A stretch of DNA of 64,000 nucleotides, taken from the NCBI GenBank assembly GCA_035221665.1, contig CM069141.1, positions 25,358,001 to 25,422,000 on the forward strand, in the 5' to 3' direction. The notes below the pieces were generated by a model. That model was not told the origin of the DNA and ran no database searches. It worked only from the letters and a program-made list of their open reading frames with translations. The position numbers and the translations under genes are program-made. How positions within the stretch are numbered: the stretch's first letter is position 1; each line of letters starts with the position of its first letter. Positions 2,888-56,463 of this stretch are shown here, one piece after another. Source of the stretch: Okamejei kenojei. Its lineage: Eukaryota.

Positions 2888-3102
2888 TTAGACACAAAGT
2901 GCTGAAGCATCTCAGTGGGTCAGGCAGCATCTCTGGAAAAAAGGAATAGATGATGCTATGGGTCAGAATCCTTCTTCAAAGGCTTTCCAACCCAAATGTC
3001 ACCTGTTTCTTTTCACCAGAGATGCTGCCTGACCCACTGAGATGCTCCAGCACTTTGTGTCTATTTTCGGTATGAATAAGCATCTGCAATTCCTTCCTAC
3101 AC
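2888..3102. repeat. Fold-back palindrome of the Penelope-end repeat
   Basis: TAGACACAAAGTGCTG..CATCTCAGTGGGTCAGGCAGCATCTCTGG is inverted against CCAGAGATGCTGCCTGACCCACTGAGATG..CAGCACTTTGTGTCTA. Confidence 0.8.
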
Positions 3103-26991: not shown

Positions 26992-28032
26992 GAAGGGATT
27001 AAAATGCAGGTGAGGTTTATATTCGTTGTGGAGAGGAATTTGCTCCACAGATCCTTGGATCATTGGAAGTGCAGGACAAAGCAAAAGGTATGTAGTTTAT
27101 TTAACCATTTTTCCCCGCTGAACCTCGCATCCGCAGTGGGGGCCTATCCATCTCGCATCCGCACCTGTCTGAGCCACCAGGCCTGAAGCATCCACGCTGC
27201 TAACTCCCACTCCCCTGGGTTTGACGGCACTGGGTCCTAGTGCCAATCCCAAACCCTGGTAACTTCAGCGGCTGTTCCACTAGGTCTTCCCCATCCCCCT
27301 CAAACTTTGTGACCCCTGCTCTTCCCCATCCACACTACAGTCCTCTCACCCCCGACCACCCACTACCCCCCCCCCCCCCCCCCCCCACCACCAGACATTG
27401 CCTCGGCCTCAATTCACTCACCTGCCTTCCTCGGGCCCCAACACCCATTCCTGCCATGTGTTCATCATCCCCCGTTGATCTCCCCCCTCCGACACCGAAC
27501 GGTCTGTCCTCAGCAGAGGTCTTACCTTTGTCCCCCTCCGTCCCCACCTCAATGAGTTCCGCGCCCACCACGACTTGGAGCTCTTCTACCGTCGCCTCCG
27601 CCTCACAGCGTTCTTCCATGGGCAAGAGTCCTCTCCCACTATTGATGATCCCTTTTCCCATCTCCAACGAACCGCCTCCTCGTGGTCCCCCCTCATGGCA
27701 TCCGGCTTTAGACCTTTTTATCCAAAACTGCCGGCGGGACATCAACTGCCTCAACTTCTCCACTCCCCTGTCTCACTTCAATCTCTCCCCGAACGTACAG
27801 CCATCAACTCACCCCGCAACAACCCAGACTGGGTGATCAAACCCGCCGACAAGGGAGGTGCCGTAGTAGTTTGGCACGCTGATCTCTACAAAGCTGAGGC
27901 CACCTGCCAACTCACGGACACCTCCTCCTACTTACCCCTGGACCATGACCCCACTGACGAGCACCAGGCCACTGTAGAGAAGGTACACAGACACCTTAAG
28001 GTCTTCACTACTTTATTAATCATACATCATAT

Positions 28033-28747
28033 GCACACGGCAGCTGACGCTTCGCTACAACAGCTGGCCGCGGTCATCAAGCATGGCTGGCCACAACGCC
28101 GTTCTTCCCTGCCGGCCGCAGCGGTGCCTTATTTCTTGGTTCGTGACGAGTTGGTGCTGCGTGATGGTGTGATTGTGAAGGGGCACAAGGTCGTGGCGCC
28201 CCCTGCACTACGAGAACAATATTTCGAAACCGCTCATCGTGGCCATCCCGGGGCCGAAGCGACCCTTTCCATCGCTCAGAGCCAGTTCTTCTGGCCTGAC
28301 ATGCCTCGCTACTTCCGGGATAGATTCTCCGCGTGCCCTACCTGCAACAGCCTCGCACTGCAGCAACAGCGGCAGCCGCTCCTGCAGCAGCCAGGTGCTA
28401 ACCTGCCCTGGTCTGCGCTAGCAACCGACATCTTCGAGTGGCACGGAAAACACTTCCTGGTGCTTGTCGACTCTTACTCCAGCTGGTTTGAAGTTGACCA
28501 GCTCCACTCCCTCTCTTCCTCCGTAGTCATCGAGAAGTTGCGCCGCCACTTTGCCACCTTCGGGTCCCCGGCCAGCCTGCAGTCGGACAACGGCAGCCAG
28601 TTCACCAGTGCCGAGTTCCGTGCTTTTGCCGAATGATGGAACTTTTGTCATTACACCAGCAGCCCGGAATACCCGCAGAGCAACGGACTGGCCGAGCGCT
28701 CGGTCCGCAGTGCTAAAGGATTGTTGGAACGTTGCCGCCTATCCCAC
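28033..28747 (+). pseudogene. Second copy of the Gypsy integrase segment
   Basis: Near-identical to about 30581-31293. Confidence 0.9.
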
Positions 28748-29049
28748 TTCTGACACCATGTAGAGAAGGTACACAGACACCTTAAGGTCTTCAATACTGT
28801 ATTAATCATACATCATATAGCCCTTTGCTGTACATGGTCTGTCACGATCACCAGAGAGAGAGCTAAGGGCGTGTGGGTTACAATTATACTAACTGGTGGG
28901 GGAGTGGTTAGCATGGACATCGTCACTATCAATTAAAAGTGTATACACATATCATCTACATCCTTCCTCTACCAAAACAAACAGTGAGTGACAGGGCGAC
29001 CACGTCTCATGCGCTAGGGTAAATGCAAACAGTAAAGCACGGGAATACA

Positions 29050-29758
29050 GAATCACACATAATCGCCGTAACGGACCGGCGACCTGACCAGGCTACCAGA
29101 CCGGGTCCGCACCTCGCGATCACCTCCTTCCTCGACGGGAACAAGCAGGGACGACGCTGGGGCATGGCGGGGGCTATGGACAGGAGAACTTCTGGGCGAC
29201 GAAGGCATCGGGGGGTGGGGCGGCGAAGAGAAGGGCGAGGAAGCCGGAGAAAGCGGGACCGCAGTCAGGAGGCGGACAGGAGAAGGACGAGGGGGGGGGG
29301 GGTGACCCCAGAGGAACGGGCAAAGCACTGGGCTGCGATAGTGGCAGCAGGAGGGGGTGGGGCATACGGAGCCGCCGGGGGAGGGAGAGGATCGTTCACG
29401 AGCCGGAGATGCTGGCGGGACCGGCGGTGGTTGACAAGGTACGAACGAGGGGAACCAGCAGAACCGACGACCACGGCCAGCTTGGAGCGGCCAGACGTGG
29501 ACCTCGTACGGACAACCTGGCCGGGGAGAAGAGGGCGGAGGACACGGCAGGACCTGTCATGGGAACGCTTCTGTATACCGTGTTTTTGGGCAATGAGTTT
29601 CCGGACCAAGGCAGGTTTAAAGACAGAGGGGGACAAGGACTGTTGTGACACTGGGACCGTGGGTCTCGTGACTCGGGACATGAGGCGCTGAGCCGGGGAG
29701 CCCAGGACATGGTCGCGGGAGATGTTGCGGAGGTTCAGCAGGGCAAGGTAAATGTCGG
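29050..29758 (-). pseudogene. Gypsy integrase C-terminal part, sense with respect to the LTRs
   Basis: DIYLALLNLRN..GSPAQRLMSR..LRPLLPGQVVR..PRSYLV..RRSRQHL and the terminal RTRSGSLVRSPVRYGDYV. Confidence 0.85.
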
Positions 29759-31293
29759 GCCCGGGAGGTCAACCTGAAGCTCAACCCGAAGAAGTGCTGA
29801 TTCCGGGTCCCTGAGGTCACCTACATGGGGCATGTCTTCACAGCATCGGGGCTGAAGCCCGACCCGCAGAAGACGGCCGCAATATCCGAGATGCCTGCAC
29901 CTGCGGACGTGCCTGGCCTACAGCGCTTCTTGGGCATGGTCAACTACCTGGGAAGGTTCATCCCTGACCTGAGCGAACTGAGTGCCCCTCTGCGGGATCT
30001 GGTGAAAAAGGACACTGCCTGGGCCCGGTTCCCGCAACACCAGCGAGCATTTGACACCCTCAAATCTAAGCTGATCAGAATGCCAACGCTGAAGCACTTT
30101 GACCTCCAGCGTCCCATCGTTCTCACATGTGATGCATCTAAGTTTGGCCTCGGAGCTGCCTGCCTGCAGATCCATGACGGGGTGCAACTGCCTGTGTCCT
30201 ACGCATCCCGCACAATGACAACCGCTGAACAACACTATGCCCAGATTGAAAAGGAGCTGCTGGCTGTTGTCTTTGCCTGCTCTAAATTCAAGGACTATAT
30301 CCTGGGCACCTGCTTCACTGTCGAGACGGACCACCAGCCTCTGGTCACCATCCTCAACAAGCCGATTACACATGGCCTCCTCCTGGCTCCAGCGCATGAT
30401 GCTCCAGCTACAACGCTTCACTTTCACAGTGGTTTATCGCAAGGGCAAGGACATGTTTGTTGCTGACACGCTGTCTCGGGCGCCTCTCTCATCCACAACC
30501 TGACATCCGTACGAGGCGTCCAATCTGATAGTCCTAAATGTCAATTTTGTGCCCTCCAGTCAGTTGAAGTCCCTGGCCAAGCACACGGCGGCTGATGCTT
30601 CGCTACAACAGCTGGCCGCGGTCATCAAGCATGGCTGGCCACAACGCCATTCTTCCCTGCTGGCCGCAGCGGTGCCTTATTTCTTGGTTCGTGACGAGTT
30701 GGTGCTGCGTGATGGTGTGATTGTGAAGGGGCACAAGGTGGTGGTGCCCCCTGCACTACGAGAACAATACTTCGAAACCGCTCATCGTGGCCATCCCGGG
30801 GCCGAAGCGACCCTTTCCATCGCTCAGAGCCAGTTTTTCTGGCCTGACATGCCTCGCTACTTCCGGGATAGATTCTCCGCGTGCCCTACCTGCAACAGCG
30901 GTCGCACTGCAGCAACAGCGGCAGCCGCTCCTACAGCAGCCAGCTGCTAACCTGCCCTGGTCTGCGCTAGCAACCGACATCTTCGAGTGGCACGGAAAGC
31001 ACTTCCTGGTGCTTGTGGACTCTTACTCCAGCTGGTTTGAAGTTACCAGCTCCAATCCCTCTCTTCCTCCGTGGTCATCGAGGAGTTGCGCCGCCACTTT
31101 GCCACCTTCGGGTCCCCGCCAGCCTGCAGTCGGACAACGGCAGCCAGTTCACCAGTGCCGAGTTCCGTCTTTTGTCGAACAATGGAACTTTCGTCATTAC
31201 ACCAGCAGCCCGGAATACCCGCAGAGCAACGGACTGGCCGAGCGCGCGGTCCGCAGTGCTAAAGGATTGTTGGAACGTTGCCGCCTATCCCAC
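29756..31293 (+). pseudogene. Gypsy pol fragment (RT C-terminus, RNase H, integrase), antisense to its LTRs
   Basis: NLKLNPKKC, LQRFLGMVNYL, CDASKFGLGA, YAQIEKELLA, ETDHQPL, ADTLSR, HRGHPG..CPTC, LVDSYS, SDNGSQF, PQSNGLAERAV, with frameshifts and stops. Confidence 0.92.
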
Positions 31294-34200
31294 TTCTGAC
31301 ACCATGTAGAGAAGGTACACAGACACCTTAAGGTCTTCACTACTTTATTAATCATACATCATATAGCCCTTAGCTGTACATGGTCTGTCACAATCACCAG
31401 AGAGAGAGCTAAGGGCGTGTGGGTTACAATTATACTAACTGGTGGGGGAGTGGTTAGCATGGACATCGTCACTATCAATTAAAGGTGTACACACATATCA
31501 TCTACAGCCACTATCTCTAGCACCATCACCGACTTCATCAACTCCGGCTCCCTGCCCTTCCTCGAGCTTCCAGCCTCATCGTTCTCCAGCCCCGTACAGC
31601 CCGATTTTACCTTCTCCCCAAAATCCACAAACCTGACTGCCCTGGTAGACCCATTGTCTCTACCTATTCATGCCCTACCAAACTCATTTCCCATACCTTG
31701 ACCATCCAACGCCCCTGGTTAAATCCCTCCCTACCTATGTTCAAGGCACCTCAAACACTCTCCGTCGTCTCCGGGCATTCAATTCTCTAGGCCCCCATCC
31801 CTTCATCTTCACCATGGATGTCCAGTCACTCTACACCTCCATCCTCCACCAGGATGGTCTCAAAGTCCTCCGGTTCTTCCTCGACCGGAGAATCAACCTA
31901 TCCCCATCCACTGGTACTATCATCCGCTTAGCGAAGTTGGTCCTTACCCTCAATAACTTCTCGTTTGACTCCTCCCATTTCCTCCAAATACAAGCTGTAG
32001 CTATGGGCACGCGCATGGGCCCCAGCTATGCCTGCCTCTTTGTCGGTACGTCGAACAATCTTTATTCGAGGCGTACCAGGGCCCCATCCCTGACCTCTAC
32101 CTCCATTACATCGACGATTTCTTTGGTGCTACCTCCTGCACCCACACACATCCGCTTCACTATGATCAGCCATGATCATATTGAATGGCGGTGCAGGCTC
32201 GAAGGGCTGAATGGCCTACTCCTGCACCTAATTTCATCTGCTTCACCATTAACTTCCATCAGGCACTCAAATACACCTGGACCATTTCCGACACTTCCCT
32301 ACCATTTCTTGACCTCACTATCTCCATCGCCGGTGATAGACTTCTGACCGACATCCACTATAAACCCACTGACTCCCATGGTTATCTAGACTACTCTTCT
32401 TCCCACCCTGCTTCCAGTAAGGACTCCATCCCCTACTCCCAATTCTTCCGTCTACACCGCATCTGCTCCCAGGATGAGGTGTTTCACACCAGGGCATCGG
32501 AAATATCCTCCTTCTTCAGGGAACGGGGGTTCCCCTCCCCCACTATAGATGAGGCTCTCACCAGGGTCTCTTCCATATCCCGTAACACTGCTCTCTCTCC
32601 CCATCCCCCCACTCGCAACAAGGGCAGAGTCCCCCTAGTCCTCATCTTTCATCCCACTAGCCGTCACATACAACAAATAGTTGTGCGTCATTTTCGCCAA
32701 CTCCAACGTGACCCCACCACTAGCCGCGTCTTCCCATCTCTCCCCCCCCCCCCCCCCCCACCCCCTTGGTCTGCTTTTCGCAAAGATCGCTCCCTCTGCA
32801 ACCCGCTGGTCAATTCTTCCCTTCCCTCCCGCACCACCCGAAGTCTACAGGCTGAGCAGGGCAGAGATTCACGCTGGTGGCCCTCGGCAAAGGGATCCCA
32901 GGGCTCCATGATGTTCAAATCAGCGCAGCCGGAGGCTGGGAGCTCCACAAACCACAGCTCCATGATGTAGAAGCAGCAGGCCCAACACTCCAGAGCTTCA
33001 AACGGCGATCCAGGTAAGGCATCGCTCGCTCTGCGGTGAATCCAATATGTATTTTAAAACCAACTGTTTAATGACAACATACAGTAGGATCTAACAGTGT
33101 CACACTGTCACTGTCGGGTAGTCATGGTCCTCTAGTCATAGGGGGTGGGGGATTGGGAGGGGGGGCCTCACAAGTGAAATAGCTTAGCGCCTCTCTTAAT
33201 CTAAATCCGGCCCTGCTTCCTACACATGTTAATTCCTTGTTTGTTTGCTGAATAATTTCAACAATTTTGGTGGTAAGAAGCTGAATCTACAATAAACAAT
33301 TTTGCAAAGTTCATAAATATTATATTCATTGTGCAGTTGACACAGTTAGCAAAGTGACTTTTGGCCATGCCATAGTCTACCTCTTCCCTACTGAAATCGT
33401 GTCAAGCTTGGGTTTGTGCTGCATCAAACAACTTTGTCTCTTCGCTGTCAGCTTTCGCAACTCACAGAGATATCGAGAAAGAATGTTCACGTTAAATTTT
33501 GAACCATTAAAAGGTGCTGTGTGCACTCCACACTGTAGGAAGAAGTACACAGTTTCTGAGCTTTTCATTGTTGGCAATTAGATTCTCAAAGCGAATGCAC
33601 TGGAAGAGTTCCAATTTACCAATGATAAATTTGGCACCAGCTCAATCAGTTAAATAAGTTGAAGGTTATAAAGCAATCTATCTCGTCCAAGTCACATGTC
33701 ACTCAGAGCTGCCATTAACCCCACATCTGAACCTGCTGAAACATTTTAGTGTCTGTGCAATTCCATCATCATGGATGACATGATTAACCGTGACATTAAT
33801 GGACACATCAAACAACTGAATGCATCCTTGGGGCATTTTAACAAGTGAATGTTAGACCAGCAAGGCATAAAATGGAGTGGAGTTTTAAACTACATCAAGC
33901 AGAAATCTTGCTAAATGTATCTTTAACTATTTTTACCCTGGTTGTGATGGCAGGTCACGAACCTGACACATCAACTCTATTCCTCTTTCCACAGACGCTG
34001 TCCAATTTTCAGAATATCTCCAACATCTCCATCCATTATTTATCGTGTGGCTGAAAATCTTTAATCTGTTACCAAGAAATATGCTAAAAAGAATGAGCTG
34101 ACCAGTTCCATCTGCTGTTTTGGACATCAAATGGTGAGAGAAAATACTGAAATGAGAACAGGGACAAATGCTTCAAATATTAATGGATGGTGGTAAAAGC

Positions 34201-34507: not shown

Positions 34508-35258
34508 AAGTTTAGTTTAGTTTACTTTAGTTTAAACATACAGTTTGGAAACAGGCCCTTCGGCCCACCAAGTCCATGCCGACCCTATACAATAGCACTA
34601 TCTGACACACAAGGGACAATTTACAATTCTAACTGAAGCCAATTAACCTGCAAACCTGTACGTCTTTCGAATGAGGAAGGAAACTAGAGCATTCGAAGAA
34701 AAACCACGCAGTCACAGGAAAAATGGACAAACTCCGTACAGACACCACCTGTAGTCAGGATTAGAAACATAGAAACATAGAAAATAGGTGCAGGAGTAGG
34801 CCATTCAGCCCTTCGAGCCTGCACCGCCATTCAATATGATCATGGCTGATCATCCAACTCAGTATCCTGTACCTGCCTTCTCTCCATACCCCTTGATCCC
34901 TTTGGCCACAAGGGCCACACCTAACTCCCTCTTACGTATAGCCAATGAACTGGCCTCAACTACCTTCTGTGGCAGATAATTCCAGAGACTCACCACTCTC
35001 TGTTAAAAAATGTTTTCCTCATCTCGGTCCTAAAGGAATTCCCCCCTTATCCTTAGACTGTGACCCCTTGTTCTGGACCTCCCCAACATCGGGAACAATC
35101 TTCCTGCATCTAGCCTATCCAACCCCTTAGAATTTTGTAAGTTTCTATAAGATCCCCCCTCAGTCTTCTAAATTCTAGCGAATTTGAACCTGGGTCTCTA
35201 AATTGAACCTGGGTCTCTGGCGCTGTAATGTAGCAACTCCACCGCTGCGCCACTGTGT
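34508..35258 (-). mobile_element. HE1/V-SINE interrupted by a CR1 3' end (about 34762-35178, minus strand)
   Basis: The SINE halves join at GTCAGGATT / GAACCTGGGTCTCT. The insert carries an (AGAAACAT)n tail and RRLRGDLIETYKIL. Confidence 0.85.
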
Positions 35259-37525: not shown

Positions 37526-37689
37526 GGGCATCCAGAGGCAAGAAGCCTGAACTAAAGAGGGTAGGGAGTCCCTCAAAGGACAAAATTCAAGGGCAAAGTG
37601 ACAAAAGTCAAGTGCCAAGTGACAAAGGTCAAGTGGAAAAGGCCAAATGTCAAAGGCAAAGGGACAAAAGTCAAATGCAAAGGGACATT

Positions 37690-39357: not shown

Positions 39358-40115
39358 ATAGAAACATAGAAACATAGAAATTAGGTGCAGGAGTAGGCCA
39401 TTCAGCCCTTCGAGCCTGCACCGCCATTCAATATGATCATGGCTGATCATCCAACTCAGTATCCCGTACCTGCCTTCTCTCTATACCCTCTGATCCCCCT
39501 TAGCCACAAGGGCCACATCCAACTCACTCTTAAATATAGCCAATGAACTGGCCTCAACTACCCTCTGTGGCAGAGAGTTCCAGAGACTCACCACTCTCTG
39601 TGTGAAAAAAGTCTTTCTCATCTCGGTCTTAAAGGATTTCCCCCTTATCCTTAAGCTGTGACCCCTTGTCCTGGACTTCCCCAACATCGGGAATAATCTT
39701 CCTGCATCTAGCCTGTCCAACCCCTTAAGAATTTTGTAAGTTTCTATAAGATCCCCTCTCAATCTCCTAAATTCCAGAGAGTATAAACCGAGTCTATCCA
39801 GTCTTTCTTCATAAGACAGTCCTGACATCCCAGGAATCAGTCTGGTGAACCTTCCCTGCACTCCCTCTATGGCAATAATGTCCTTCCTCAGATTTGGAGA
39901 CCAAAACTGTATGCAATACTCCAGGTGTGGTCTCACCAAGACCCTGTACAACTGAAGTAGAACCTCCCTGCTCCTGTACTCAAATCCTTTTGCTATGAAA
40001 GCTAACATACCATTCGCTTTTTTCACTGCCTGCTGCACCTGCATGCCTACTTTCAATGACTGGTGTACCATGAACCCAGGTCTCGCTGCATCTCCCCTTT
40101 TCCTAATCGGCCACC
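39358..40115 (-). mobile_element. Young 5'-truncated CR1 LINE inserted in the LTR element
   Basis: Open frame VKKANGMLAFI..VRPHLEYCIQFWSP..RGDLIETYKIL..RVVSLWNSLP, with an (TTTCTATG)n tail. Confidence 0.95.
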
Positions 40116-56392: not shown

Positions 56393-56463
56393 GGGATCAT
56401 CCAGGATTTGAACCCAGGACCTCTCGCACCGTAAGCGAGTATCATACCCAAGTCCAATGAGCC
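56393..56463 (-). pseudogene. tRNA-Pro-derived pseudogene; anticodon loop now TT-ACG-GT
   Basis: GGCTCATTGGACTTGGGTATGATACTCGCTTACGGTGCGAGAGGTCCTGGGTTCAAATCCTGGATGATCCC aligns end to end with vertebrate tRNA-Pro, with several substitutions and a 1-nt D-arm deletion. Confidence 0.85.

Follow-up and report, generated by a model that had tools for sequence, protein, structure and literature searches.

The window analysed here, the whole 64-kb stretch C11:25358001-25422000 (forward strand) of the 2.76 Gb genome of the skate Okamejei kenojei, contains a retrotransposon with long terminal repeats (LTRs) in which part of the polymerase gene (pol) lies in inverted orientation. Comparison of the window with itself revealed a target-site duplication (TSD), which delimits the insertion to 27973-31506, and three LTR pieces within it. 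The features of the insertion are as follows:

27968..27972, no strand: left TSD GCCAC, repeated at 31507-31511.
27973..28032, minus strand: partial LTR forming the true 3' end of the insertion, namely the last 60 nt of the LTR (positions 143-202, U5 end); 100% identity to 31305-31364 and 96.7% to 28759-28818.
28033..28740, plus strand: second (inner) inverted pol, antisense to the LTRs, with the integrase zinc-binding part and the N-terminal part of the core (Pfam Integrase_H2C2, E 8.1e-12; rve, E 4.6e-10).
28741..28758, minus strand: second 18-nt primer-binding site (PBS), derived from tRNA-Leu(CAA), joined to the inverted integrase at the same site as the outer PBS.
28759..28960, minus strand: middle LTR of 202 bp, with a polypurine tract (PPT) before and the 18-nt PBS after it; 6/202 mismatches to 31305-31506.
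28961..28970, minus strand: PPT AGAGGAAGGA; the same motif precedes the 3' LTRs of non-inverted copies.
28971..29758, minus strand: C-terminal remainder of the integrase in element sense (DIYLALLNLRN..., stop at 29265), with the 3' untranslated part; it starts 8 nt into the PBS-mimic site.
29756..29758, no strand: second junction, between reverse transcriptase (RT) and integrase remainder, with a 3-nt microhomology; private to the window copy.
29756..31286, plus strand: outer inverted pol with the C-terminal part of RT, RNase H (Pfam RT_RNaseH_2, E 4.7e-31) and the N-terminal part of the integrase, with frameshifts and stops; about 94% identity to non-inverted copies.
31287..31304, minus strand: 18-nt PBS, derived from tRNA-Leu(CAA), whose last 5 nt (31287-31291) are the ATCCC of the integrase site.
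31305..31506, minus strand: 5' LTR of 202 bp, TG...CA.
31507..31511, no strand: right TSD GCCAC.

Read in element sense, i.e. on the minus strand, the insertion runs from the 5' LTR (31506-31305) through the 18-nt PBS into 1.5 kb of backward pol, from integrase to RT, and then continues with the integrase remainder and 3' region, the PPT, the middle LTR (28960-28759), the second 18-nt PBS, 708 nt of backward pol from the same site and the last 60 nt of an LTR. The junction between PBS and inverted integrase is present twice within 27973-31506. The signals needed in cis (LTRs, PBS and PPT) are kept while the coding capacity is lost. An earlier interpretation made from the letters alone (the sequence-only reading) had placed LTRs, PBS and PPT on the minus strand and the C-terminal RT part, RNase H and N-terminal integrase part on the plus strand (29756-31286), ending in ...RCRLSH where CTATCCC runs into the anti-PBS at 31287-31304; it had the integrase remainder DIYLALLNLRN back on minus, as found here from 29758, and gag, protease and the N-terminal part of RT missing from the insertion, and our analysis agrees with it on all of these points. 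It had also ended the element at 28741, where we find a second anti-PBS without a TSD; the clean TSD that it described exists as an integrase-type 5-bp duplication, but it bounds 27973-31506 and not 28741-31506.

The unit 27973-28758 (18-nt PBS, 708 nt of inverted integrase and the last 60 nt of the LTR) shows 96.6% identity to 30581-31509, and the inner inverted unit differs from 30581-31304 at 21 of 723 aligned nt. The two units of the window are mutual nearest rows with three rare alleles in common. Their divergence of 3.3% is close to that of the window's LTRs (3.0%), so the duplication is about as old as the insertion itself. Contigs of public sequencing runs, which are probably DNA and share 0.2 of words, show the non-inverted join as well as the empty host site, where 27967 abuts 31507 in further copies of the host element.

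By its domain order, protease (PR)-RT-RNase H-integrase (IN), the element is assigned to the Ty3/Gypsy LTR retrotransposons. In the non-inverted copy L143, a protease-like match (E 0.003) that falls short of the curated cutoff is followed by RVT_1, Integrase_H2C2 and rve in Pfam; in the window, RNase H precedes IN. The best PDB matches are the RT of Ty3. Direct LTRs of the form TG...CA, a PBS, a PPT and TSDs of 4-6 bp are present as in other members of this group. The short LTR, the 5-bp TSD and the tRNA-Leu PBS would fit the Mag clade, to which the element may belong.

At the breakpoint, non-inverted copies have ATCCCGCTCCGACATC; they read ATCCCGCTCCGACATCTAC, which encodes RLSRSDIY. Where the window has the A of ATCCCAC, the parent base is G in 16/18 non-inverted copies and in 99/100 of the first listed pattern matches. 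This A, and with it the His of RLSH, is by this comparison a tRNA-derived base. RLSH is integrase as the sequence-only reading had it except for its last residue, the non-inverted copies reading RLSR-SDIY. That reading's guess at the parent sequence came close to what the non-inverted copies hold, including the similarity to the anti-PBS: the integrase site pairs with the 18-nt PBS over eight consecutive positions from its 3' end, one of them T-G, and, by RNA-RNA duplex energy, comes out on top of 60 sense sites starting with ATC, with one natural copy serving as the ruler. Exact genomic matches number 592 for the non-inverted site pattern vs 149 for the PBS|inverted-integrase junction, and none for the controls. 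As the 149 exact matches stand against 0 in the reversed-pattern control, the junction is not due to chance. It accompanies 5' LTRs that are 81-95% like those of the window.

Where a copy runs into the gag leader, its PBS measures only 13-14 nt, TGGYGTCAGAAGT(G); it matches tRNA-Leu(CAA) over this length and is followed directly by the leader. This native short form has 476 exact matches in the genome, a few of them inside inverted copies. Among the first 100 listed short-PBS matches, base 4 is C in 71, and bases 4-5 are CG in 64, CA in 7 and TG in 29. T is in excess of symmetric CpG decay, which suggests either that the tRNA-derived strand is inherited in part or that there is a subfamily with T. 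The tRNA-Leu(CAA) genes on C13 predict T at this base, and T is indeed found in 99 of the first 100 listed matches of the 18-nt PBS, which has 1687 matches across many families; judged by these bases, the 18-nt form is derived from the tRNA.

Of the first 80 listed 18-nt PBS places on C1, 18 carry the LTR of this family. Extrapolated, this gives about 380 family copies with an 18-nt PBS, or roughly 4/10 of the PBS-bearing copies, which is a rough figure as the pattern lengths differ. We then followed 41 family copies with an 18-nt PBS in genome order, comprising those 18 and 23 others limited to one LTR-end variant. In none of the 41 does the 18-nt PBS stand directly before the normal leader: 26 continue in antisense, 12 in sense at ectopic sites, and three could not be placed. 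Sorted by where the tRNA-derived part stops, 25 end after 18 nt and turn antisense, three jump into sense sequence, 10 enter the tRNA first, and three are again unplaced. After the 18-nt stop, 22/25 antisense landings fall on ATCCC sites (13 at the integrase site and 5, 3 and 1 at three other pol sites). An antisense piece was found in 0/24 short-PBS control copies (Fisher p 1e-7).

Other families show the same PBS in different settings. In a second Gypsy family with one LTR end (L161, L171, L174, L181, L192, L218, L226 and L240; C1), the sampled copies with an 18-nt PBS all go on in different ways, most of them after tRNA read-through. Several families share a leader after the 18-nt PBS, which is apparently their native full-length form (L185, L198, L207 and L209; L194 and L203; L206 and L208), and may serve as a natural control group. 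Locus L142 is a tandem arrangement with a shared LTR and the native short PBS.

In 39/103 loci of this and other Gypsy families (L088-L110, L161-L240), the 18-nt PBS continues as antisense tRNA-Leu(CAA). The base opposite A58 is T in 21, A in 13, C in three and G in two of them, so that 18/39 are mismatched and dATP is the main error (13/18). The next eight positions show 7/312 mismatches, a control flattered by the use of these same positions for locus selection. The longest read-throughs (L093, L110, L213) reach position 38 and carry an A where G37 predicts C, which would fit a stop at a modified G37 (likely m1G37). Between the LTR and element sequence, read-through of as much as 49 nt is present. 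Such read-through, together with the misincorporation at A58, ties the whole class to reverse transcription of a mature tRNA. Direct reading located an intron-containing tRNA-Leu(CAA) gene cluster (L306-L309) at C13:63.17-63.20 Mb; ARAGORN as run reported no gene in six tRNA loci, which by direct reading are four tRNA-Leu(CAA) genes and two read-through copies. Not contained in the sequence-only reading are the likely cause, a native PBS of only 13-14 nt, the landings at other sites, the copies that read into the tRNA and the window's inner unit.

Next, the relationship of the inverted copies was analysed on 52 of them, namely the first 51 listed junction matches in genome order and the window. 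The first junction is fixed in all 52, the antisense tract ranges from 27 to 3652 nt, and no pair shares both junctions. The sequence-only reading had proposed a defective family that transposes and has both breakpoints in common; its PBS-side junction does recur (149 exact matches), but the window's second junction was found only in the window among 40 scored matches. TSDs are exact in 22 copies and match at 4/5 positions in six, all of them different, and three more close on longer flanks. For a tree of the 400 nt adjoining the site, 43 inverted and 43 non-inverted copies were used; nine inverted and five non-inverted rows, not colinear over 370 nt, were left out. The label inverted/non-inverted changes 23 times on this tree, six of these changes being forced by starred branches. 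A single origin occurs in 0/200 bootstrap trees, and the approximately unbiased (AU) test rejects one inverted clade (p 2.2e-6). Median identity of LTR pairs is 0.973 for inverted (n=29) and 0.98 for non-inverted copies (n=18), i.e. both are equally old. Altogether, the inverted copies likely represent a recurring failure of plus-strand transfer whose products were still inserted by integrase, and not a spreading defective clone.

How these products were finished can also be read from the copies. In 33/33 placeable copies, the final stretch of sense sequence begins no earlier than the invaded site (~1e-21 under uniform starts). In seven copies it resumes within -6..+9 of the site, the window at +8 via its 3-nt microhomology, and copies primed at an upstream site resume at that upstream site (L201, and L228 in another family). 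In L256 and L195, the antisense tract passes through the LTR into the PPT and the C-terminal part of the integrase, a continuation that a normal R-to-R jump on an RNA template would give; in L247, L245 and L104 it extends as far as the U3 start. A second product class (L247, L268, L189) has direct outer LTRs and a TSD with an inverted LTR plus 18-nt PBS inside, at the integrase site. A seeming hot spot of template exit near ruler position 3000 was discarded as an artefact of a deletion in the ruler copy L143.

Considering these findings, we assign a probability of about 0.8 to the reading that the insertion is an integrase-inserted Ty3/Gypsy copy produced when plus-strand strong-stop DNA misprimed, an event that likely recurred independently for each of at least 149 copies. 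The junction lies at the end of tRNA-derived bases that are absent from the parent PBS, and the landing site is complementary to the 3' end of the PBS, as expected of plus-strand transfer gone astray. The annealing of the PBS end at the integrase site, already put forward in the sequence-only reading, gains support from the tRNA-only bases at the junction and from the integrase resuming at the same site. An origin by reverse transcription appears independently shown by the tRNA read-through with its A58 misincorporation.

In one round of reverse transcription, strong-stop DNA of the plus strand would miss the short native PBS, prime on the integrase look-alike and have pol copied backwards. 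In retroviruses, plus-strand synthesis stops 18 nt into the primer tRNA, at 1-methyladenosine 58 (m1A58), and without this stop RT copies more of the tRNA (Fukuda et al. 2021, PMC8599865). If RT copied the primer up to m1A58 in the skate element as well, the short native PBS would leave the strong-stop DNA with an unpaired 3' tail of 4-5 nt (GGGAT). This tail may then pair with a strand of sense polarity, likely genomic RNA, at ATCCCGCTCCGACA, and its extension would copy pol backwards. RNase H action at the invaded site would end the minus-strand template, so that the minus strand stops at or before the site. After a variable distance, the extended strand would jump by microhomology to the minus strand and finish the LTR, which would provide integrase with two proper ends. 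Further multiplication of the products is unlikely, as they are without leader and gag, where the packaging signal would be expected.

The inner unit of the window would be explained by a second pass and a second mispriming: the strand may have run again into the still-attached tRNA, reprimed at the same site and jumped into the LTR. On the simplest reading, both misprimings took place in the same round. An early unequal crossover with a deletion is an alternative source of the double unit.

Several observations weigh against this reading. Every step of the mechanism is inferred from sequence. Only one LTR lies within ~9 kb in 11/52 copies, a rate similar to that of cut short-PBS copies (~5/24). 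On the tree, 47/83 branches are unresolved, the labels are slightly more clustered than shuffled ones (15 and 9 of 500 shuffles as low), and recombination of co-packaged RNA could scatter the label, so that the tree alone is no proof; the conclusion of many events is drawn from the unique junctions and the parallel product classes and not from the tree alone. The rule that the last sense run never starts upstream of the site may partly reflect loss of long inverted repeats, and several copies hold sense pieces from upstream of it, which requires a second minus strand or more jumps. Use of a single ruler copy limits the ranking of landing sites, of which two of the six ruler ATCCC sites (2276, 3093) have no landing in the 41 copies and the second-ranked one (2521) has only one; pairing energy alone therefore does not set landing frequency.

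Among the alternatives, the one that survives best keeps the same tRNA-tailed strong-stop DNA but lets it pair with plus-strand DNA, or be joined by host microhomology repair, before integration instead of being extended on genomic RNA. The sequence gives polarity only and not the chemistry of the template, the multi-jump copies would suit such a route, and the antisense tracts of L247, L245 and L104 reach the start of U3, at which a linear DNA template would run out. However, L256 and L195 pass U3 into the PPT, and the final sense run, never upstream of the site (33/33), behaves as expected if an RNA template was cut there; we regard the DNA route as improbable.

Even less probable is a single inverted master that spread as a non-autonomous (defective-interfering) family, with later deletions or recombination varying the second junction. 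Such a master would explain the identical PBS-side junction in 149 matches, the retention of all cis signals and a starred group of seven inverted-only rows on the tree. It is at odds with the lack of any pair among the 52 copies sharing both junctions, the rejection of one clade, the presence of the junction with 5' LTRs of only 81-95% likeness to the window's and the joining of the same 18-nt PBS to other ATCCC sites and to tRNA read-through. The copies have kept their cis signals and lost coding capacity like a self-propagating non-autonomous element, but they form no clade of one structure. A defective-interfering role is unlikely as well, because the inverted copies did not multiply.

A chromosomal inversion of the inserted element, arising when the PBS recombined with its integrase look-alike and followed by deletions, would account for the integrase resuming at the same site in seven copies but is hardly credible. 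The native PBS has no GGGAT to match the site, each junction read shows tRNA-only bases, 0/24 short-PBS copies are inverted, and no reciprocal junction (inverted leader plus integrase remainder) was seen in the 52 copies. An invertible switch between two repeats was rejected on the same absence of a reciprocal junction.

The surroundings of the insertion hold further repeats. Its host is an element on the plus strand (27479-27972 and 31507-32970) with a broken RT frame whose reading carries on across the TSD; the frames of this element gave no Pfam match, but by its motifs the RT looks Penelope-like. A 74-nt insert in the host RT (32162-32235) is 99-100% complementary to 39377-39450 and 34780-34853. 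Elsewhere in the window, we noted a tRNA-Arg(ACG) gene or look-alike (56393-56463, minus strand), a tandem repeat with a 21-nt unit (37575-37687) and two young pairs of direct repeats, 36416-36577/40282-40443 and 34762-35136/39359-39734, which lie ~3.9 and 4.6 kb apart.

A wider proposal, which we consider doubtful, is that Gypsy elements with a short PBS (<18 nt) routinely turn 'dead-end' tRNA-tailed strong-stop DNA into integrated rearranged copies, at about 4/10 of PBS-bearing insertions here. The mimic site in the integrase would then seed LTR-driven antisense-pol loci at each transposition burst and act as a built-in brake, and the genome would record germ-line tRNA modifications (m1A58, likely m1G37). 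As judged from their structure, inverted copies would retain LTR promoters in front of antisense pol, and antisense copies of an active element that arise in this mechanical way are candidate raw material for silencing by PIWI-interacting RNAs (piRNAs). Transfer of the plus strand at a short PBS has so far been studied mainly in yeast Ty1/Ty3. The skate genome holds hundreds of fixed, dated outcomes of this step, with landing sites predictable from sequence, which makes the step testable by counting. In addition, software for element annotation may call a PBS of 18 nt that only failed copies possess, and a signature of m1A58 has been left in chromosomal DNA.

Finally, the skate family can be set beside known systems. 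In yeast Ty1/Ty3, tRNA-tailed plus-strand strong-stop DNA ends up as a dead-end product, and the tRNA does not pass its sequence on to the PBS (PMC5371799, including Lauermann and Boeke 1994/1997 as cited there). Like these elements, the skate family has a PBS shorter than the copied tRNA stretch, its tRNA-tailed strong-stop DNA is off the normal route, and most of its genomic copies do not owe their PBS to the tRNA, 71 of the first 100 listed short-PBS matches having C at base 4. In contrast to the dead end in yeast particles, the skate products went through to completion and insertion with 5-bp TSDs, and hundreds of them became fixed in the germ line; the family has a hot spot that inverts pol, and T at base 4 in 29 of the first 100 suggests some inheritance from the tRNA.

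For retroviral vectors, deletions anchored at the PBS were reportedly described by Pulsinelli and Temin in 1991. In murine leukaemia virus (MLV), a PBS-anchored rearrangement was ascribed to a strand-transfer error (PMC3185545). The skate products likewise have one end fixed at the PBS and would reflect a strand-transfer error, but the vector cases are deletions from single-cycle culture with a full 18-nt PBS, whereas in this natural family inversions at a defined mimic site make up the main class. Extra tRNA sequence is stated to prevent completion and integration in retroviruses (Fukuda et al. 2021, PMC8599865); read-through products of the skate genome are integrated nonetheless. Terminal-repeat retrotransposons in miniature (TRIM) and large retrotransposon derivatives (LARD) are self-propagating families of one structure (PMC4558846, PMC10886601). 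They share two LTRs, PBS, PPT and TSD without intact coding capacity with the skate copies, each of which is, unlike them, unique and gives no sign of further amplification. The m1A signature known from RNA sequencing consists of RT arrest and misincorporation, with m1A-U as the strongest context for dATP (Hauenschild et al. 2015, PMC4787781). Arrest and misincorporation with dATP as the main error (13/18) recur in the skate, although here the signature stands in chromosomal DNA, was apparently written by endogenous Gypsy RTs and has the context m1A-A.

An inverted-pol product is not described in the parts seen of PMC12312487, PMC12220202, PMC4558846 and PMC10886601, and a literature search that excluded most subscription papers, Repbase reports and supplements did not turn up any account of such copies fixed in a genome. 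Taken together, the inverted-pol product is real and a variant of a known transfer error, which is unusually frequent and well documented in this genome.

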